Source of the DNA: a virus | Taxonomy: Duplodnaviria; Heunggongvirae; Uroviricota; Caudoviricetes | Length of the DNA: 17,922 bases | Reading direction: 5' to 3' (one strand) | Virus record (IMG/VR): IMGVR_UViG_2526164632_000023 | In this document: in pieces, positions 1,228 through 9,975 of the stretch | Layout: each line of letters begins with the position of its first letter | Position numbering within the stretch: the first letter of the stretch is position 1 | Position numbers and translations under genes: made by a program | The notes under the pieces: generated by a model | The model's database searches: none | What the model was told of the DNA's origin: nothing | What the model saw: only the letters and a program-made list of their open reading frames with translations

Positions 1228-1318
1228 ACTGATATTACGGGCATAGGTCGGCCAACCGAAAAGCGGGAAACCCTACCCGCCTGGCTCGTAAAGTATTTAG
1301 GGCGTTGAGGGTAGCGCA

Positions 1319-2780: not shown

Positions 2781-2969
2781 TCAGTCAGATTTGGTTCGTT
2801 CCAAGGTTTGCAACGAGAGCTTTTTCCTGTGCTCTTTAAGGAATTGCTCAAGGGCAAAAGCACATGGCGCGAATCTTTCTGATTCATGCTCTATCTTTCT
2901 GCGCCGTCTTTTCCGTGCCGGTGATAATGTTTTGGTCAATTCTTTATCGGTCATTGTGTTGTCCTGCAT
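2781..2969 (-). CDS. Small highly basic hypothetical protein (57-62 aa), downstream of the RHH gene on the minus strand
   Basis: ORF MQDNTMTDKELTKTLSPARKRRRRKIEHESERF...; an alternative start at the second Met (coordinate 2954) has an AGGA upstream. No recognisable family. Confidence 0.3.
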   Translation of the reverse strand: MQDNTMTDKELTKTLSPARKRRRRKIEHESERFAPCAFALEQFLKEHRKKLSLQTLERTKSD

Positions 2970-3011
2970 AGCAATGCGCCGTAGTTACTCACACCACGGC
3001 GCTGGTGATGG

Positions 3012-3190
3012 TTACTCCTGCTCTTTGGCCTTGCGACGCTGGCGGCGTTTGATCTCACCTTTAACGGCAGTAACTATAAATTGCGCCTTGCTTTCACCTT
3101 CATCTAAATTTTTTCTAAGTCTGCAACAACATCATGCGGGAATCTGGCATTTAACTGTTGCGACTTATTATTTGTTGAACCTGTTGCCAT
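3012..3190 (-). pseudogene. Ribbon-helix-helix (CopG/Arc/MetJ-like) DNA-binding protein gene, interrupted by an apparent +1/-1 frameshift in a homopolymer run
   Basis: Minus-strand ATG at 3190 gives MATGSTNNKSQQLNARFPHDVVADLEKI then a stop. The adjacent frame continues DEGESKAQFIVTAVKGEIKRRQRRKAKEQE to a TAA at 3012-3014. Adding one base in the A3/T6 run at 3106-3114 restores a 59-aa product with beta-strand, helix, G-x-S turn and second helix. Confidence 0.5.
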
Positions 3191-3301
3191 TACTGAATCC
3201 TCTCTAAGTTGGTGCGATTCAGTATACACAAAAAAAATTTCAGAGAAAGAGTTGAAGTGCGATTCACTTACTGATGGGTTAAAAACGAATGGTGCGATGC
3301 A
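3191..3301. promoter_or_regulatory. Divergent control region with operator-like repeats between the RHH gene and the rightward early operon
   Basis: Inverted repeat TACTGAATC (3191-3199) / GATTCAGTA (3216-3224); three direct copies of GTGCGAT(T/G)CA at 3212-3221, 3257-3266 and 3292-3301; A8 tract at 3229-3236. Confidence 0.45.
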
Positions 3302-3380
3302 CCAAACAACAACGCCCCGCAGTGGTGGCACACATGCAGGGCGTCTAACCACCAACGATAGCGAAAGTATCGAGGTAGCT

Positions 3381-3584
3381 ATGAGAAATTATACCAGACA
3401 CCCGCAAGGGCGGGACTCGTACAACCTGAATAAATACATCTGGCGTTTTATCGCCCTGAGCACGGCACAACCGCGCGTGATTACCATTGAGGCCACCAGC
3501 GAACAGGAAGCACGCCAGCAATCTCCTGATGACTGCGTGATGGTATTCGCCGCCCGTATTCGTCAGGGGGTGCGCCATGCATGA
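3381..3584 (+). CDS. Hypothetical small protein (67 aa), first gene of rightward early operon
   Basis: ATG 3381 preceded by GAGGTAG; the ORF-track extension back to 3252 uses a TTG inside the operator repeats with no RBS. No family recognised. Confidence 0.35.
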   Translation: MRNYTRHPQGRDSYNLNKYIWRFIALSTAQPRVITIEATSEQEARQQSPDDCVMVFAARIRQGVRHA

Positions 3585-3792
3585 TGACCGTTATTTTAAA
3601 TCAATGAGCCATGCAGAAAACGCACTGACTAACAGTGAATGTTTGAGGCAAATATTTCTTATCTGGCTTGATGGTTTAAGTGATGCGCCGGAAGATGAGC
3701 GTGAGTCTAATCTTGCTGGTGCGTTTATTTCATTACTCGATACGGTAATCGTCGAATTAAATAAAGCGATCGAAATTCACGATAAAAAATAA
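3577..3792 (+). CDS. Hypothetical small protein (71 aa)
   Basis: ORF overlaps the upstream stop (coupled arrangement); no family recognised. Confidence 0.4.
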   Translation: MHDDRYFKSMSHAENALTNSECLRQIFLIWLDGLSDAPEDERESNLAGAFISLLDTVIVELNKAIEIHDKK

Positions 3793-3808
3793 ACGCGGAA
3801 TAAAAACC

Positions 3809-4096
3809 ATGAAACAGAAAATTTCTGGCTTTACTGCCAGCGGCCCCGCTCGGCCTGAAATCCGCCCCGGCGATATTTTCCGGGATAACTATGGCGGCAC
3901 GGTAACGATAAAAGGCGTGGTAGAACGGCACATTACTTACCGCCGTGAAGGTTATGAATATGACTGCGTGATGCCTGTTTATCAGTTCCGGCGTGATTTC
4001 ACGCTGGTGGGCCATCGTAAAGCCGTAAATCAGAAACGTGCAGCAAGTCATATCCGCAAAATTCGTGAAATGCTGGTCGCAGGGGGTAAAAAATGA
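3809..4096 (+). CDS. Hypothetical protein (95 aa), translationally coupled to the replication ATPase
   Basis: Stop overlaps the start of the 4093 ORF (ATGA). Confidence 0.5.
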   Translation: MKQKISGFTASGPARPEIRPGDIFRDNYGGTVTIKGVVERHITYRREGYEYDCVMPVYQFRRDFTLVGHRKAVNQKRAASHIRKIREMLVAGGKK

Positions 4097-5499
4097 AACT
4101 GGCACCGAACGTAAAACTGTTACCGAAAGATAAACACACTGAGGCGGTTATTTTTGCGGGTGATAATGCTCACTCCTTTGCAGAACATTACATGATTGCA
4201 CAGGCCAAAAAAGCAGGCGATCCCATCCCTCCGGTTTACCTGGGCCGTTATCAGTTAAGCGAACTGGACAACCTGCAGATTGTTGATGAGGGGCGATACA
4301 GGGTAACGGTGATACGCGCCGGAAATATTGACGAAGCGCAGCTGTTAACCATAGCGACAAAACTGGCGATCGCCGGAGTCCAGGAAGCGCGGCTGCTTTC
4401 TGAAAACTTCGAATTACTGGAGAAATGGACCGACCAGCTTCCACGGCTACGGGAGACATGGGAGAGAGGGGAAAGCCTGATCATGAACGGAGGAAAACAA
4501 AAAATCACGCTACCGATTTCATGGGGTTCTGAGGGATTCGACGCGCAGCAAAGCTACGTAATTAAGGGGCTTATTCCGGCTGAATCATTATGCAGCACCT
4601 ACGGGGCCAGCGGTTCTTATAAATCGTTCCTGGCTATTTCCTGGTCGTGCCATGTTGCCACAGGTATGGCATGGGGAGGCCGCAGGGTAAGTAAGGGCGC
4701 GGTTATCTATATCGCTGGCGAAGGCAGTATGGGCGTAAAACGCCGCGTTAAGGCGTGGGAGATAACCCACGACAAGGTGGTTACGGATTTGTGCATCGTT
4801 AACGCGCCTGTCTTCCCTGCATCGCCTGACTATGTGGAGCAGGTTATCAGGACTGCCGGACTTGTTAAGAGCAGAACGGGCGAAAATGTGCGGCTGATTG
4901 TGATCGACACGCTGGCCCGTTGCTTTGGTGGGAATGATGAAAATGATTCCCGTGATATGGGCGCATTTATCCAGGGGTGTGACGCGATAAAGCAGGCCAC
5001 AGGGGCCACGGTACTGGTGGTTCACCATTCCGGCAAGGATGAAACAAAGGGGGCGCGAGGTTCCAGCGCATTCCGCGCTGCACTGGATGCAGAGTACCGA
5101 ATCAGCCGGGAAAATTCAGACGTTACAGCACTGGTGGCGGCGTGTACGAAGATGAAAGACGCAGAGGAGCCAAAAGAGAGCGCATACGACCTTAAAAGCG
5201 TGGAGGTGTTTACCGATACCGATGGCGAAGAGATTGTGTCCATGGTGGTGATTGACGTTCCCCGCGCCCCTGCTGAACTGGAGCGCATAGAGGAGGCCGG
5301 GAACAAGACGGAAAATCACACGGCTTTATGGGGTTGTATCCGGTCACGTATACAGCATGGTGATAAATGCACGATCCCGCTGCTACGTGATGACATGAAA
5401 AAGCTGGGATATGACACAAAACACCTTAAACGATGGTTAGCCAAACTGGAAAAAGACGGCGTGATTTGCGTCGATGGGGATGATGTTCACCCACTGTAA
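4093..5499 (+). CDS. Replication initiator / RecA-fold AAA ATPase (RepA-like helicase, AAA_25-type) of the island
   Basis: 468 aa. Walker A GASGSYKSFLAISW, Walker B LIVIDTLARCFGG, VLVVHHSGKDETKGARGSSA motif typical of RepA-like helicases; followed directly by an iteron array. Confidence 0.8.
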   Translation: MKLAPNVKLLPKDKHTEAVIFAGDNAHSFAEHYMIAQAKKAGDPIPPVYLGRYQLSELDNLQIVDEGRYRVTVIRAGNIDEAQLLTIATKLAIAGVQEARLLSENFELLEKWTDQLPRLRETWERGESLIMNGGKQKITLPISWGSEGFDAQQSYVIKGLIPAESLCSTYGASGSYKSFLAISWSCHVATGMAWGGRRVSKGAVIYIAGEGSMGVKRRVKAWEITHDKVVTDLCIVNAPVFPASPDYVEQVIRTAGLVKSRTGENVRLIVIDTLARCFGGNDENDSRDMGAFIQGCDAIKQATGATVLVVHHSGKDETKGARGSSAFRAALDAEYRISRENSDVTALVAACTKMKDAEEPKESAYDLKSVEVFTDTDGEEIVSMVVIDVPRAPAELERIEEAGNKTENHTALWGCIRSRIQHGDKCTIPLLRDDMKKLGYDTKHLKRWLAKLEKDGVICVDGDDVHPL

Positions 5500-5700
5500 A
5501 AAGTGGGCGTTAAAAGTGGGAATAGTGGGTAATTTAACTGGAATTTAACAAAATCGCCCACTTTCCCACGTGTATACATCCCAAAAAGTGGGCACTAAAA
5601 AAATTCTTATGAAACAGCACGATATAAAACCACAAAATCCCAGGTGGGACGAAGTGGGAAACCATGAAAAGTGGGTAGAAAAAGTGGGCACAGGTGGGCG
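5490..5700. repeat. Iteron array (about 10 copies of (A/G)GTGGG, mostly as AAAAGTGGGNA, two inverted), candidate replication origin
   Basis: Read directly: AGTGGG at 5502, 5515, 5524, 5587, 5653, 5670, 5683; GGTGGG at 5643, 5693; inverted CCCACT at 5490 and 5557. Immediately downstream of the rep gene. Confidence 0.6.
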
Positions 5701-5701
5701 C

Positions 5702-5953
5702 ATGACCAGAAAAACCAGAGATAAGACAACACCAAAATATCGCGCATTAGACATGACAGAGCACGCCTTAAAGGTGGCAATCAGAACGATAGACCGCCAC
5801 GCCGGAGAAGGATACGCGAAAGCACATCCCGAACTGATAAGCGCATTCATGATCACGGCGGCGGCAAATTTTGCCACACTGACAGAACGGGAGATTGCCG
5901 AAGCGGAACAGGTGACAACCATCAACGTTAAAACCGGAGAGCAGACAGCATGA
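5702..5953 (+). CDS. Hypothetical protein (83 aa)
   Basis: Start moved to ATG 5702, just past the iterons; the ORF-track N-terminal 44 aa would be translated through the repeat array. Stop overlaps the ssb start (ATGA). Confidence 0.45.
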   Translation: MTRKTRDKTTPKYRALDMTEHALKVAIRTIDRHAGEGYAKAHPELISAFMITAAANFATLTEREIAEAEQVTTINVKTGEQTA

Positions 5954-6411: not shown

Positions 6412-6954
6412 ATGACAACGCTGACCATTAACCGGAAGCCGAAAGGCATTTACGGCACGCCGCAGAAAACGACGCAGGCGGCGCAAGAGCAGGATAAAAC
6501 CACATCGGCGCATAAAGTGATACCCGATAATCAGAACGCACAGCAGAGCCGCAAACAGAAGACCGCAGGGGCGACACCGTGGCAGCATATGACCAAAAGA
6601 CAGCGCAAAAACCGCCGACGCGTTAACCGCCTCACTGAGATGTGGCCTGACTTATTCAGCCATAAAGCACCGAAGCCGCTTAAGGTGGGGATATTCGACG
6701 ACCTGATGCAGGATATCGCCGTCAGGGGGCTGGCATTCGGGTCGGGGGTATTACGTGCGACGCTGGCATCCTATGCGCAGTCTCCGCGCTATTACCGCGC
6801 CCTGATAGCTGGTGGCGCACGTTACGACCTGAAAGGCCAGCCATGTGGGGAAGTGACACCACAGGAACAGCAGGAGGCAGAAACACGGCTGATGGTGCTG
6901 AATGAGAAGCACAAGCGCCAGCGCCGGGCAGCAAAGGGGGATACATGCCAGTGA
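6412..6954 (+). CDS. ProQ/FinO-domain RNA-binding protein
   Basis: Central region PLKVGIFDDL...LRATLASYAQSPRYYRALIAGGARYDLKGQPCGEVTPQEQQEAE aligns by eye with the ProQ/FinO N-terminal domain as I remember it (PLKIGIF.DL ... LRSALRLYT.S.RY ... RVDLDGNPCGEL). Basic N- and C-terminal extensions. GGGGAAGG RBS before ATG 6412. Confidence 0.8.
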   Translation: MTTLTINRKPKGIYGTPQKTTQAAQEQDKTTSAHKVIPDNQNAQQSRKQKTAGATPWQHMTKRQRKNRRRVNRLTEMWPDLFSHKAPKPLKVGIFDDLMQDIAVRGLAFGSGVLRATLASYAQSPRYYRALIAGGARYDLKGQPCGEVTPQEQQEAETRLMVLNEKHKRQRRAAKGDTCQ

Positions 6955-7272: not shown

Positions 7273-7357
7273 GTAAGCGCATCATTTAAACCGTCTTTCG
7301 CCTCCCTTTCCTGTTTCCGATACTAATGTCCATTTTCGCAGTAAAAGGACATTTAAG

Positions 7358-8008
7358 ATGAATGCACGAAAAGCGGTACTGGCAGATAATCCAGAATTGA
7401 TCCTGCGTGTGCTACAGCTGAGATTTGACGAGTCACTGTCGTACCCGCGCATTTCTGCGCAGACTGGTGTCAGCAAAACCGCCATTTTTTCTCTGGTGAG
7501 GCGATTTCACCAGGTATTCACTGACTGGCCTCTTTCCGGTGAATATTCCTGCGGGCAACTGGCCCGGGCTCTTTTCCCGGGGCGATACCCTTCAGCCCCG
7601 ACCGTGACTCAGCCTGTGAAAGCAGAGAAACCCCGCCGGAACCGATTTTCACCGGAGTTTAAATGGAGACTGGTTCAGCAAACTCTTTTACCCGGTGCCT
7701 GTGTCGCACAAATAGCTCGAGAGAATGGAATTAACGATAACCTGCTCTTTAACTGGCGGCATCTCTGGCGTAACGGTGGCCTGCAACCGCCCGGCGAACA
7801 TGAAACATCGCTACTTCCCGTGACGTTAACTCCGGAGCCGGATAATAAAATCCCGGCACCAGTGCAGATACCTGAACAGATAAATACACTGCCAGACAGT
7901 CTGTGCTGCGAGCTGGTTCTGCCGGCCGGAACTCTCAGGCTGAAAGGTGAACTGACACCGGCGTTATTACAGACACTTATCCGCGAAATGAAAGGGAGCA
8001 GCCACTGA
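7358..8008 (+). CDS. tnpA: IS66-family accessory protein TnpA (orfA)
   Basis: 216 aa with HTH-like N-terminus; position and sequence typical of IS66 orfA; stop overlaps the tnpB start. Confidence 0.8.
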   Translation: MNARKAVLADNPELILRVLQLRFDESLSYPRISAQTGVSKTAIFSLVRRFHQVFTDWPLSGEYSCGQLARALFPGRYPSAPTVTQPVKAEKPRRNRFSPEFKWRLVQQTLLPGACVAQIARENGINDNLLFNWRHLWRNGGLQPPGEHETSLLPVTLTPEPDNKIPAPVQIPEQINTLPDSLCCELVLPAGTLRLKGELTPALLQTLIREMKGSSH

Positions 8009-8355
8009 TGATATCTCTCCCTGCCGGTTCGCGTATCTGGCTGGTTGCCGGTATCACCGATATGCGAAATGGCTTTAACGGCCTGGCCTCAAAAGTTCAG
8101 AACGTCCTGAAGGATGACCCGTTCTCCGGGCATCTGTTCATCTTCCGCGGACGCCGGGGTGACCAGATAAAAGTGCTGTGGGCTGACAGTGACGGACTGT
8201 GCCTCTTCACCAAACGCCTGGAGCGGGGCCGCTTCGTCTGGCCGGTCACCCGCGATGGAAAGGTTCACCTTACTCCGGCTCAGTTGTCCATGCTTCTCGA
8301 AGGCATCGACTGGAAGCACCCGAAACGAACGGAACGCGCTGGCATCCGCATATAA
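8008..8355 (+). CDS. tnpB: IS66-family accessory protein TnpB (orfB)
   Basis: 115 aa, MISLPAGSRIWLVAGITDMRNGFNGLA...LWADSDGLCLFTKRLERGRF is the conserved IS66 orfB signature. Confidence 0.9.
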   Translation: MISLPAGSRIWLVAGITDMRNGFNGLASKVQNVLKDDPFSGHLFIFRGRRGDQIKVLWADSDGLCLFTKRLERGRFVWPVTRDGKVHLTPAQLSMLLEGIDWKHPKRTERAGIRI

Positions 8356-8374
8356 CCCGTTGTAAAGTGAGGAT

Positions 8375-9945
8375 ATGGACACCTCACTTGCTCATGAGAA
8401 TGCCCGCCTGCGGGCACTGTTGCAGACGCAACAGGACACCATCCGCCAGATGGCGAAATACAACCGCCTGCTCTCACAGCGGGTGGCGGCTTATGCTTCC
8501 GAAATCAACCGGCTGAAGGCGCTGGTTGCGAAACTGCAGCGCATGCAGTTCGGTAAAAGCTCAGAAAAACTTCGCGCTAAAACCGAACGGCAGATACAGG
8601 AAGCACAGGAGCGAATCAGCGCACTTCAGGAAGAAATGGCGGAAACGCTGGGTGAGCAATATGACCCGGTACTGCCATCCGCCCTGCGCCAGTCTTCAGC
8701 CCGTAAACCGTTACCGGCCTCACTTCCCCGTGAAACCCGGGTCATCCGGCCGGAAGAGGAATGCTGCCCGGCCTGTGGTGGTGACCTCAGTCCTCTGGGG
8801 TGTGATGTGTCAGAGCAACTGGAGCTTATCAGCAGCGCCTTTAAGGTTATCGAAACACAACGTCCGAAACTGGCCTGTTGTCGGTGCGACCATATCGTGC
8901 AGGCAACAGTACCTTCAAAACCCATTGCACGCAGTTATGCCGGAGCGGGGCTTCTGGCCCATGTTGTTACCGGGAAATATGCAGACCATCTGCCGTTATA
9001 CCGCCAGTCAGAAATATACCGTCGCCAGGGCGTGGAGCTGAGCCGCGCCACGCTGGGGCGCTGGACAGGTGCCGTTGCTGAACTGCTGGAGCCGCTGTAT
9101 GACGTCCTGCGCCAGTATGTGCTGATGCCCGGTAAAGTCCATGCTGATGATATCCCCGTCCCGGTCCAGGAGCCGGGCAGCGGTAAAACCCGGACCGCCC
9201 GGCTGTGGGTCTACGTCCGTGATGACCGTAACGCCGGTTCGGAAATGCCCCCGGCGGTCTGGTTCGCGTACTCACCGGACCGGAAAGGTATCCATCCACA
9301 AAATCATCTGGCCGGTTACAGCGGTGTGCTTCAGGCCGATGCTTACGGTGGTTACCGGGTGTTATACGAATCCGGCAGAATAACGGAAGCCGCGTGTATG
9401 GCTCATGCCCGGAGAAAAATCCACGATGTGCATGCAAGAGTGCCCACCGACATCACCACGGAAGCCCTGCAGCGTATCGGTGAACTGTATGCCATAGAGG
9501 CAGAATCCGGGGATGTACAGCAGAACAGCGTCTGGCGGCAAGAAAAGCCAGAGCTGCGCCACTGATGCAGTCACTGTATGACTGGATACAGACTCAGATG
9601 AAAACACTGTCGCGTCACTCGGATACGGCAAAAGCGTTCGCATACCTGCTGAAACAGTGGGATGGCCTGAACGTGTACTGCAGTAATGGCTGGGTGGAAA
9701 TCGACAACAACATCGCAGAGAACGCCTTACGGGGAGTGGCCGTAGGCCGGAAAAACTGGCTGTTCGCGGGTTCCGACAGCGGTGGCGAACATGCGGCGGT
9801 GTTGTACTCGCTGATCGGCACATGCCGTCTGAACAATGTGGAACCAGAAAAATGGCTGCGTTACGTCATTGAGCATATCCAGGATTGGCCGGCAAACCGG
9901 GTACGCGATCTGTTGCCCTGGAAAGTTGATCTGACCTCTCAGTAA
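8375..9945 (+). pseudogene. tnpC: IS66-family transposase TnpC, split by an apparent 1-nt frameshift near 9500-9510
   Basis: ORF 8375-9565 has the leucine-zipper N-terminus, CPACGG...CCRC zinc-finger motif and DDE core; ORF 9565-9945 in another frame carries the conserved C-terminus [26 protein letters not shown]. The second frame is open back to 9484, so the shift lies in 9484-9565. Confidence 0.8.
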
Positions 9946-9975
9946 ATATCAATACGGTTCTGGCGAGCCGCTTAC

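Follow-up and report, generated by a model that had tools for sequence, protein, structure and literature searches.

In F-like plasmids, the FinP/traJ/FinO system relies on a ~79-nucleotide (nt) antisense RNA with two stem-loops, the second of which is the terminator, that lies over the leader, the ribosome-binding site (RBS) and the first codon(s) of its target. In plasmid R1/IncFII, CopA blocks the leader peptide tap, and repA depends on tap by translational coupling. In IS10, the antisense promoter of RNA-OUT is located inside the 5' end of the coding sequence that is regulated. In phage P1, the record annotation describes icd as the first cistron of immI, a cell-division inhibitor whose translation is required for the overlapping ant to be expressed and is blocked by c4 RNA. 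Here, we compare these systems with the leader of a replication operon found in a 17,922-nt stretch of viral DNA (IMG/VR virus record IMGVR_UViG_2526164632_000023), referred to below in its full length as the window. The window contains an Escherichia coli chromosomal island flanked by gcd and hpt, which is 99.8–99.9% identical to an island of E. coli AST240, aside from a 2.7-kb IS66-family insertion. The island is a capsid-forming phage-inducible chromosomal island (cf-PICI), with an int/alpA end, rep and iterons, and its own head genes, without tail genes. The published descriptions of PICIs and cf-PICIs consulted leave the small open reading frames (ORFs) between alpA and rep uncharacterized and mention no antisense RNA, and a literature search on Icd-like proteins, DUF4222 and antisense RNA in PICIs returned annotation lists only.

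Three ORFs of 67, 71 and 95 amino acids (aa) lead the replication operon of this island, with an operator-bearing promoter on one side and the replication ATPase on the other, as a first-pass annotation of the window had described. That annotation missed a predicted antisense RNA over the start of the first ORF. The elements concerned are as follows.

3381–3584, plus strand: ORF1, 67 aa, ATG start, isoelectric point (pI) 10, with GAGG at 3372–3375.
3577–3792, plus strand: ORF2, 71 aa as read, a small acidic protein of pI 4.7.
3809–4096, plus strand: ORF3, 95 aa, pI 10.3, with an ATGA overlap with rep.
4093–5499, plus strand: rep, 468 aa, a RepA-type (AAA_25) helicase (PF13481, 4e-43), annotated 'helicase RepA family protein'.
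~3381 to ~3303, minus strand: predicted cis-antisense RNA of ~79 nt, with two hairpins and a U-rich tail.
3396–3388, minus strand: perfect extended -10 element TGGTATAAT inside ORF1 codons 3–6, with a predicted start at ~3381.
3381–3346, minus strand: stem-loop 1 (SL1), 13 bp, with a 7-nt variable loop at 3361–3367.
3345–3311, minus strand: terminator-like GC-rich hairpin immediately after SL1, with a U-rich tail at 3310–3300.

We propose that these ORFs serve as leader cistrons in the cf-PICI replication operon, and that entry into this operon would be controlled at two levels, first by an operator-bracketed promoter under a YlcI/YnfO-family protein and then by the ~79-nt cis-antisense RNA. 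The RNA would pair with the leader and block translation of ORF1, the head of a chain of cistrons whose overlapping or abutting stops and starts would pass ribosomes from ORF1 to rep. With every cistron beginning at or beside the stop codon of its predecessor, a failure to translate ORF1 would lower translation of rep; transcription of rep would probably also be reduced through polarity, and the island would be kept from replicating until induction. Induction of PICIs needs AlpA, whose expression the helper triggers (PMC6092414); in the scheme proposed here, it would have to overcome both the repressor and the antisense RNA. ORF1, when made, probably has the further effect of delaying host cell division, like P1 Icd. 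Taken as a whole, a scheme in which an antisense-gated ORF1 relays translation to rep seems to us slightly better than an even proposition.

The gene order and the junctions between the cistrons are strongly conserved. Relatives were drawn from 5,426 complete E. coli genomes and from >120 IMG/VR contigs, the latter retrieved by an exact 16-nt DNA pattern lying inside SL1 after a scan of genome contigs with ORF1 had yielded 4 loci. Homologues of the ORFs are present in about 1,800–1,960 of the complete genomes and in the >120 contigs. Walking the operon up to a gene of at least 300 aa gave 109 related loci (106 for some junction counts), in which the leader reads icd-like gene, zero to five variable small ORFs, DUF4222 gene and rep. 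The ORF1 stop overlaps the next start by 8, 11 or 4 nt in 113 of ~120 loci; the gene before DUF4222 ends 4–6 nt ahead of the DUF4222 start in 91 of 106; and DUF4222 and rep overlap in 105 of 106. The translational coupling of the last ORF to rep, proposed in the first-pass annotation, is supported by the ATGA overlap in the window. The ratio of nonsynonymous to synonymous differences per site (pN/pS), calculated from uncorrected proportions, is 0.38 for ORF1 (76 unique sequences), 0.58 for ORF2 (37 unique sequences) and 0.62 for ORF3 (86 unique sequences), and in all three alignments the third codon positions are the most variable. The ORFs are kept in related islands with coding-like ratios, which identifies all three as real conserved genes evolving as coding sequence.

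The first of these genes encodes an Icd-like protein. ORF1 matches NCBIfam NF033153 (Icd-like) with 72.2 bits against a cut-off of 25, and P1 Icd itself scores 52.6 bits; the domain occupies residues 19–62 (nt 3435–3566). Aligned directly, ORF1 and P1 Icd are 32% identical over 50 aa (E = 7e-7, single comparison). A tblastn search of the whole phage collection with ORF1 did not recover P1, and the relationship is therefore distant. By these matches, ORF1 is a homologue of phage P1 Icd, and the identities of the leader genes are assigned with very high confidence. Sequence searches of the PDB with ORF1 and ORF3 gave no matches. In the RefSeq annotation of AST240, ORF1 starts at an ATG at 3297 and is 95 aa long, and most relatives are annotated with 66–68 aa. 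The 95-aa version was dismissed: its 28 extra codons span covarying RNA hairpins, and the peptide they would encode is not kept (68 variants in 78 sequences). On this pattern, 3381 is the better start. A 77-aa minus-strand ORF at 3345–3578 was dismissed as well, as codons 19–69 vary in the frame of ORF1. Among relatives, pS is 0.17 for ORF1, 0.58 for ORF2 and 0.49 for ORF3; the low value for ORF1 suggests that the leader and ORF1 form a conserved module swapped by recombination, or that an extra constraint acts at the nucleotide level.

Two further observations concern the icd-like gene. An inverted repeat, CCCGCAAGGGCGGG, is located at 3401–3414 in ORF1 codons 7–12, at positions -20 to -33 of the antisense promoter, with nearly invariant nucleotides in 76 relatives; a binding site for a protein and an mRNA hairpin (-10 kcal/mol) are both conceivable. 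Between alpA and the leader, some islands have a partial 'Icd-like' pseudogene; others have a 178–184-aa Icd-like form, in which an insert of ~115 residues separates the conserved N-terminus from the Icd domain (loci L006:2041-2320, L009:1676-2155 and L131:2326-2919; in IMG/VR, for example, L019 and L111). Either a duplication of the leader module or translation of a non-coding segment may account for these pseudogenes and long forms.

The minus strand across the ORF1 start harbors a conserved structure. In an alignment of 78 unique related sequences, RNAalifold paired 98.4% of the minus-strand cells, with nine compensatory pairs, and none of 500 shuffles was as good. The structure is strand-specific: there are 322 G–U cells on the minus strand versus 1 on the plus strand, where the G–U pairs become C–A mismatches, every sequence has at least three mismatches and pairing amounts to 82.5%. 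For the copy in the window, the minimum free energy is -36.4 kcal/mol on the minus strand (z = -3.7) versus -25.1 kcal/mol on the plus strand (z = -3.2). A covariance model finds this single copy in the window (112.6 bits) and has matches elsewhere in E. ruysiae, Shigella flexneri, O157:H7 and Tenebrionibacter. With diverged taxa added, in an alignment fitted to the model, 96.9% of cells are paired, and compensatory changes are seen in 14 of 26 pairs, three of them in SL1. On the minus strand, T makes up 53% of the 9 nt that follow the terminator-like hairpin. At the other end, the SL1 5' arm (3374–3381) and adjacent bases are complementary to the GAGG at 3372–3375 and to the A of the ORF1 ATG at 3381; the block upstream of ORF1 that is common to relatives ends GAGG-N5-ATG.

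A promoter motif accompanies this structure. The sole match to TGNTATAAT in the window is the antisense -10, 7 nt upstream of the first helix. The element reads TGGTATGAT or TGGTATAAT in 71 of the 78 unique relatives; its T, A, T and last T never change, not even in sequences that differ in the encoded protein. Throughout ORF1 codons 1–18, ahead of the Icd domain that starts at codon 19, variation is confined to first and second positions, with third positions invariant. Coding sequence would show the opposite, and the pattern fits an overlapping promoter zone. From the structure and the motif combined, we regard the existence of the antisense RNA as likely. Could the same features be explained without an antisense transcript? 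The hairpins might form a bidirectional terminator or insulator, or a structure of the sense leader, with the ORFs simply under the repressor-controlled promoter: folding of the plus strand, too, is more stable than that of shuffled sequence, as the z-score above indicates, and a consensus -10 may arise by chance (0.45 expected per window). However, the excess of G–U pairs on one strand and the mismatches in every plus-strand sequence argue against this explanation, there is no downstream minus-strand gene whose transcript needs termination at the hairpins, and the -10 is kept both at a constant spacing from the first helix and at synonymous positions. We consider this explanation unlikely.

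The predicted RNA has no counterpart in Rfam. At gathering threshold, a scan of the whole window with Rfam identified only the int-alpA RNA at 1236–1302. A permissive scan (E <= 10) of 2950–4150 on both strands found no C4 and no family for the antisense RNA; it gave two chance-level plus-strand matches, to R1162 antisense RNA (16 bits) and to a microRNA. The sequence of the RNA was not found in the literature text searched. Its SL1 loop (3361–3367) exists in ~8 discrete alleles that reassort with variants of the terminator hairpin; on the plus strand, these read ACGAGAG, GCAACAG, GCGAAAG, GCAAGAT, GAAAGAG, GAAAGCG, GCAGAAG and GCAAGAG. Where two loci occur in the same genome, the loops are identical in 2 of 7 pairs, too few for power on incompatibility. 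The loop could be a specificity determinant.

The resemblance to P1 immI (c4-icd-ant1/2) is considerable. In both, an Icd-family cistron of ~70 aa comes first, with a stop overlapping the next start, and the RBS of the icd gene is the target of a small structured RNA, predicted in the window, of ~77–79 nt. The differences lie in how the RNA would be made and in what lies downstream. P1 c4 is cut from the same transcript as its target and acts via short a/b sites, whereas the predicted RNA is on the opposite strand and fully complementary; the downstream gene in P1 encodes an antirepressor, whereas that of the window encodes a replication helicase two further cistrons away. An icd homologue that comes first after a ~94-nt structured leader mirrors immI closely enough to raise the question of whether this leader, too, gives rise to an immunity RNA processed from the same strand, of the P1 c4 or P4 CI type, pairing upstream of the icd-like gene, and Icd-like genes are also present in P4-like satellites (PMC13612085). 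Such an RNA is very improbable here: the Rfam scans place the window RNA outside the C4 family and, on either strand, in no other family, the covariance model has no match in P1 immI, the base-pair asymmetry favors the opposite strand, and the hairpin loop varies while CCACC, which would be complementary to the loop of the window, stays constant.

An opposite-strand RNA brings the locus closer to plasmid and insertion-sequence systems. The likeness of the predicted RNA to FinP is one of layout (size, two stem-loops and complementarity to the RBS and start), and the island encodes a protein with a ProQ/FinO domain, a family of chaperones for structured antisense RNAs. The target of FinP is a transfer activator, whereas that in the window leads a replication operon. 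In this respect, the proposal resembles CopA/tap/repA, where antisense control also acts on a short cistron coupled to a replication gene; unlike tap, the leader cistron of the window encodes a conserved protein with a likely function of its own, and two more proteins are encoded before rep. The placement of the -10 within ORF1 is like that of the RNA-OUT promoter. Unlike R1 and IS10, the element is a chromosomal phage satellite and not a plasmid or an insertion sequence.

The first level of the proposed control is a promoter surrounded by repeats, preceded by a divergent small gene.

3252–3280, plus strand: predicted sense promoter of sigma-70 type, with -35 TTGAAG (3252–3257), a 17-nt spacer and -10 TGGGTT (3275–3280).
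3212–3304: operator-like repeats, with GTGCGATTCA at 3212–3221 and 3257–3266, and GTGCGATGCA at 3292–3301 inside the palindrome TGGTGCGATGCACCA at 3290–3304.
3011–3190, minus strand: divergent YlcI/YnfO-family small protein, ribbon-helix-helix-like, annotated in AST240; in the window, loss of a T at 3109 shifts its frame.

The predicted sense promoter was not flagged by a simple consensus scan. At the same place, relatives have TTGACG or TTGACA and TAACAT or TAAAGT, better matches than those of the window. At the second -10 position, the window has G3276 where AST240 and other relatives have A (TGGGTT versus TAGGTT in AST240), which, if real, is a predicted promoter-down change. A repeat search located three GTGCGAT(T/G)CA copies upstream of, within and just downstream of this promoter; in other lineages, the positions of the repeats are kept and their sequence is changed. 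A YlcI/YnfO homologue is present in 84 of 120 IMG/VR loci. Across 78 loci, each YlcI/YnfO allele pairs with one 9-mer that is repeated two to four times around the promoter: one allele with GTGTTCAAC in 22 of 22 loci, another pair in 5 of 5, and the allele of the window with GGTGCGATT in 3 of 3. Given this covariation, the YlcI/YnfO-family protein is a strong candidate for a repressor that binds the operators, and it probably binds the operator repeats. The master repressor of Gram-negative PICIs has been called 'unclear' (PMC6092414), and the YlcI/YnfO-family protein is a candidate for that role, specific to each lineage.

At the other end of the leader, ORF3 belongs to the Pfam family DUF4222 (PF13973), which it matches over residues 16–67 with 82.5 bits (gathering score 27). 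Its predicted structure is an SH3/Tudor/KOW-like five-stranded barrel with a basic C-terminal helix. ORF3 is 61% identical over 92 aa to a 99-aa protein of E. coli O157:H7, which has an RGD motif at residues 20–22 and is encoded directly 5' of a RepA-family helicase gene, in an int-alpA island adjoining roxA. Matched to the description in PMC3378721, this protein appears to be RgdR (ECs1581) of O-island 51 (OI-51)/CP-933C, to which ORF3 would be orthologous, as length, identity and genomic position all agree. RgdR and its orthologue C1493 of CFT073 are members of the same Pfam family as ORF3, of similar size and with a pI of ~10. RgdR has been studied solely for its effects on host type III secretion and motility. 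ORF3 has no RGD motif and reads RPGD (R19-P20-G21-D22) instead. In RgdR, residue 20 is important for activity, and the RGD motif is specific to enterohemorrhagic E. coli (EHEC) and not defining for DUF4222 (PMC3378721).

The position of DUF4222 is nearly uniform. It lies directly before rep in 100 of 109 islands and does so across three rep types, which in the walked loci are primase-like (64), RepA helicase (24) and a third type (17). A tblastn search of phage genomes revealed an unannotated 73-aa DUF4222 ORF (68.7 bits) in e14/SfIV-like temperate phages, with an 11-nt overlap with the start of replication gene O. With three rep types and gene O counted together, DUF4222 is associated with the 5' flank of replication genes belonging to at least four unrelated kinds. 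We infer that ORF3 may help the replication gene after it, whatever its type, to be expressed or to function. The phage ORF is found at L132:2489-2710 (vB_EcoM-720R4), and at the same place in SfIV (L133), in another frame inside the annotated ymfM (2352-2690). The ymfM gene is the e14 gene reported to cause SOS-inducible filamentation, and which frame is functional at the locus may deserve a look.

A different role for ORF3 is suggested by its studied relatives. When expressed, RgdR and C1493 activate LEE1 of the enterocyte-effacement locus (LEE) and repress motility, and they bind DNA non-specifically (PMC3378721), and ORF3 might likewise be chiefly a host-directed cargo regulator of type III secretion and motility, without a part in replication of the island and placed before rep for convenient co-expression. 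Yet the LEE is absent from most ORF3 carriers, the RGD motif is not found in the ORF3 of the window, and the family keeps its place, overlapping almost every rep and preceding unrelated replication genes in islands as well as gene O in temperate phages. A role directed mainly at the host is, on balance, not probable.

Between these two conserved genes, ORF2 occupies a variable slot. The ORF2 of AST240 is 75 aa long; the window is without one A in an A-run at 3784, and this deletion widens the gap between ORF2 and ORF3 from 5 to 16 nt. The true ORF2 is probably the 75-aa form, with a stop 5 nt before the ORF3 ATG. ORF2 matches PHROG 2196 (phrog_2196; E = 2.3e-22, residues 4–70), a narrow family without assigned function, and has no Pfam or NCBIfam match. 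Two very large protein searches, the second of 1.8 billion representatives, returned 8 and 15 relatives; among the 15, the long multi-stretch matches resemble helical or low-complexity noise. An AlphaFold2 model of ORF2 has three helices (pLDDT 78), and Foldseek found no fold match for it in the PDB (best E 2.1). Profile searches thus place each ORF in a family (ORF1 in NF033153, ORF2 in PHROG 2196 and ORF3 in DUF4222), where the first-pass annotation had recognized none, and the structural comparison left ORF2 without a structural relative.

The ORF2 family is found in 48 of 109 islands, nearly always directly before DUF4222. Together with a remotely related cluster, it fills this place in 58 of 106 loci; elsewhere, unrelated families do. 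By hhalign, ORF2 is linked to one other family of the slot, c15 (84%), and not to c5, c10 or c4. The whole interval between the icd-like gene and DUF4222 holds zero to five small ORFs from many unrelated clusters, 87–94% of which are acidic. An acidic partner specific to DUF4222 was considered and dismissed, since nearly all small ORFs of the region are acidic. From its distribution, ORF2 appears to be an exchangeable accessory, one of several interchangeable small acidic proteins.

A slot that is highly variable and mostly acidic has the pattern typical of a diversifying interaction with phages or hosts, and ORF2 is without a detectable homologue of known function. Both points favor the suggestion, made in the first-pass annotation, that proteins in this position are helper-interaction or derepression factors, which in its full form would have all three proteins switch the island on by sensing or binding proteins of the helper. 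No evidence for such factors was found. Nearly all islands have ORF1 and ORF3, in conserved form, a better fit to a housekeeping role in the island's own cycle; induction of Gram-negative PICIs runs via AlpA and not via genes in the leader position (PMC6092414); and Pfam, NCBIfam and PHROG searches gave no similarity of the three ORFs to any anti-repressor. For the three proteins together, the suggestion is improbable, and only the variable slot held by ORF2 remains compatible with helper interaction.

Several points weigh against an antisense-gated relay from ORF1 to rep as proposed above. The antisense promoter has no recognizable -35, the U-tract is interrupted (GUUGUUUGG), and a simple terminator scan did not flag the antisense hairpin. 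The invariance of SL1 in the 78 sequences arises partly by construction, because the 16-mer used for retrieval lies inside SL1, and the covariation of SL1 rests on few diverged sequences aligned to the model. Of 120 related loci, only 20 (~17%) have the gene for the ProQ/FinO-domain protein, a parallel to FinO. Both the production of the RNA and the relay of translation are predictions from sequence, and inhibition of cell division by ORF1 is probable by extrapolation from P1 Icd, a relative of 32% identity. Finally, deletion of rgdR alters type III secretion in uninduced EHEC (PMC3378721), which implies that the operon is leaky or that ORF3 has its own promoter.

Beyond the leader, the island follows a known plan. 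The integrase gene is followed by the int-alpA RNA, an AlpA-family regulator, the divergent YlcI/YnfO-family gene, the rightward operon and the head module. The rightward operon comprises the three small ORFs, the RepA-type helicase, an iteron-rich origin-like region, SSB and the ProQ/FinO-domain protein. The remaining features are listed here.

1–1227: tyrosine integrase, the first gene of the island.
1236–1302, plus strand: int-alpA RNA motif (Rfam RF02996, 55 bits), directly 3' of the integrase gene.
5487–5702: probable replication origin, just 3' of rep, with an AT-rich core at 5525–5555 surrounded by at least nine AAAGTGGG iterons that occur in both orientations.
6412–6954, plus strand: ProQ/FinO-domain protein (PF04352, 8.5e-24).
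7274–9975: IS66-family element, with TnpA at 7358–8008, TnpB at 8008–8355 and a transposase split into 8375–9565 and 9565–9945.

The head module is complete, with capsid, protease, portal, connector, HNH, TerS and TerL identified from the AST240 annotation and from Pfam and NCBIfam matches. The succession of int, alpA, rep and a downstream iteron origin is common to the window island, the cf-PICI EcCIEDL933 and the PICI EcCICFT073, and the iteron region matches the origin layout described for E. coli PICIs (PMC6092414). Capsid, protease, portal, HNH and terminase are likewise found in cf-PICIs such as EcCIEDL933. The window copy differs from EcCIEDL933 and EcCICFT073 in bearing the IS66-family insertion, which lies between an 82-aa ORF and the capsid gene, with a GGTTGTTCG duplication at its flanks; AST240 is without the element. 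Four single bases present in AST240 are missing from the window, at 1421, 3109, 3784 and 16415. All four deletions fall in A/T homopolymers of at least 6 bases and are therefore probably sequencing errors. The deletion at 1421 frameshifts a hypothetical gene (1471–2247) and that at 3109 the YlcI/YnfO gene; those at 3784 and 16415 alter the C-termini of ORF2 and of an 83-aa ORF, respectively. Because of the IS66-family insertion and the substitution in the sense -10, the activity of this copy of the island is uncertain.

What this analysis adds beyond known families is the candidate antisense RNA, the covarying repressor/operator pair and the placement of DUF4222. Were the proposed regulation to fail, the three ORFs would be ordinary, already-annotated small satellite genes. 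A broader generalization can be put forward tentatively, and we would not yet bet on it: Gram-negative PICIs and cf-PICIs may be silenced by a two-tier module, situated just ahead of and within the leader ORFs, that combines a lineage-specific YlcI/YnfO repressor acting on three repeats with a FinP-like RNA, whose ~8 loop alleles would serve as incompatibility determinants among co-resident islands, and DUF4222/RgdR may be a general partner of replication-gene expression in satellites and temperate phages. As vehicles of gene transfer, the PICIs and cf-PICIs of E. coli are widespread, and the mechanism of their quiescence is what is at stake; the locus offers testable candidates in a lineage-covarying operator/repressor pair, an antisense RNA over the RBS of the first cistron and a coupled chain ending in rep. 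RgdR, previously viewed as a 'prophage regulator' of EHEC virulence, is now placed before replication genes in satellites and phages, and this conserved position suggests that its virulence effects are a side-effect of a replication-linked function.

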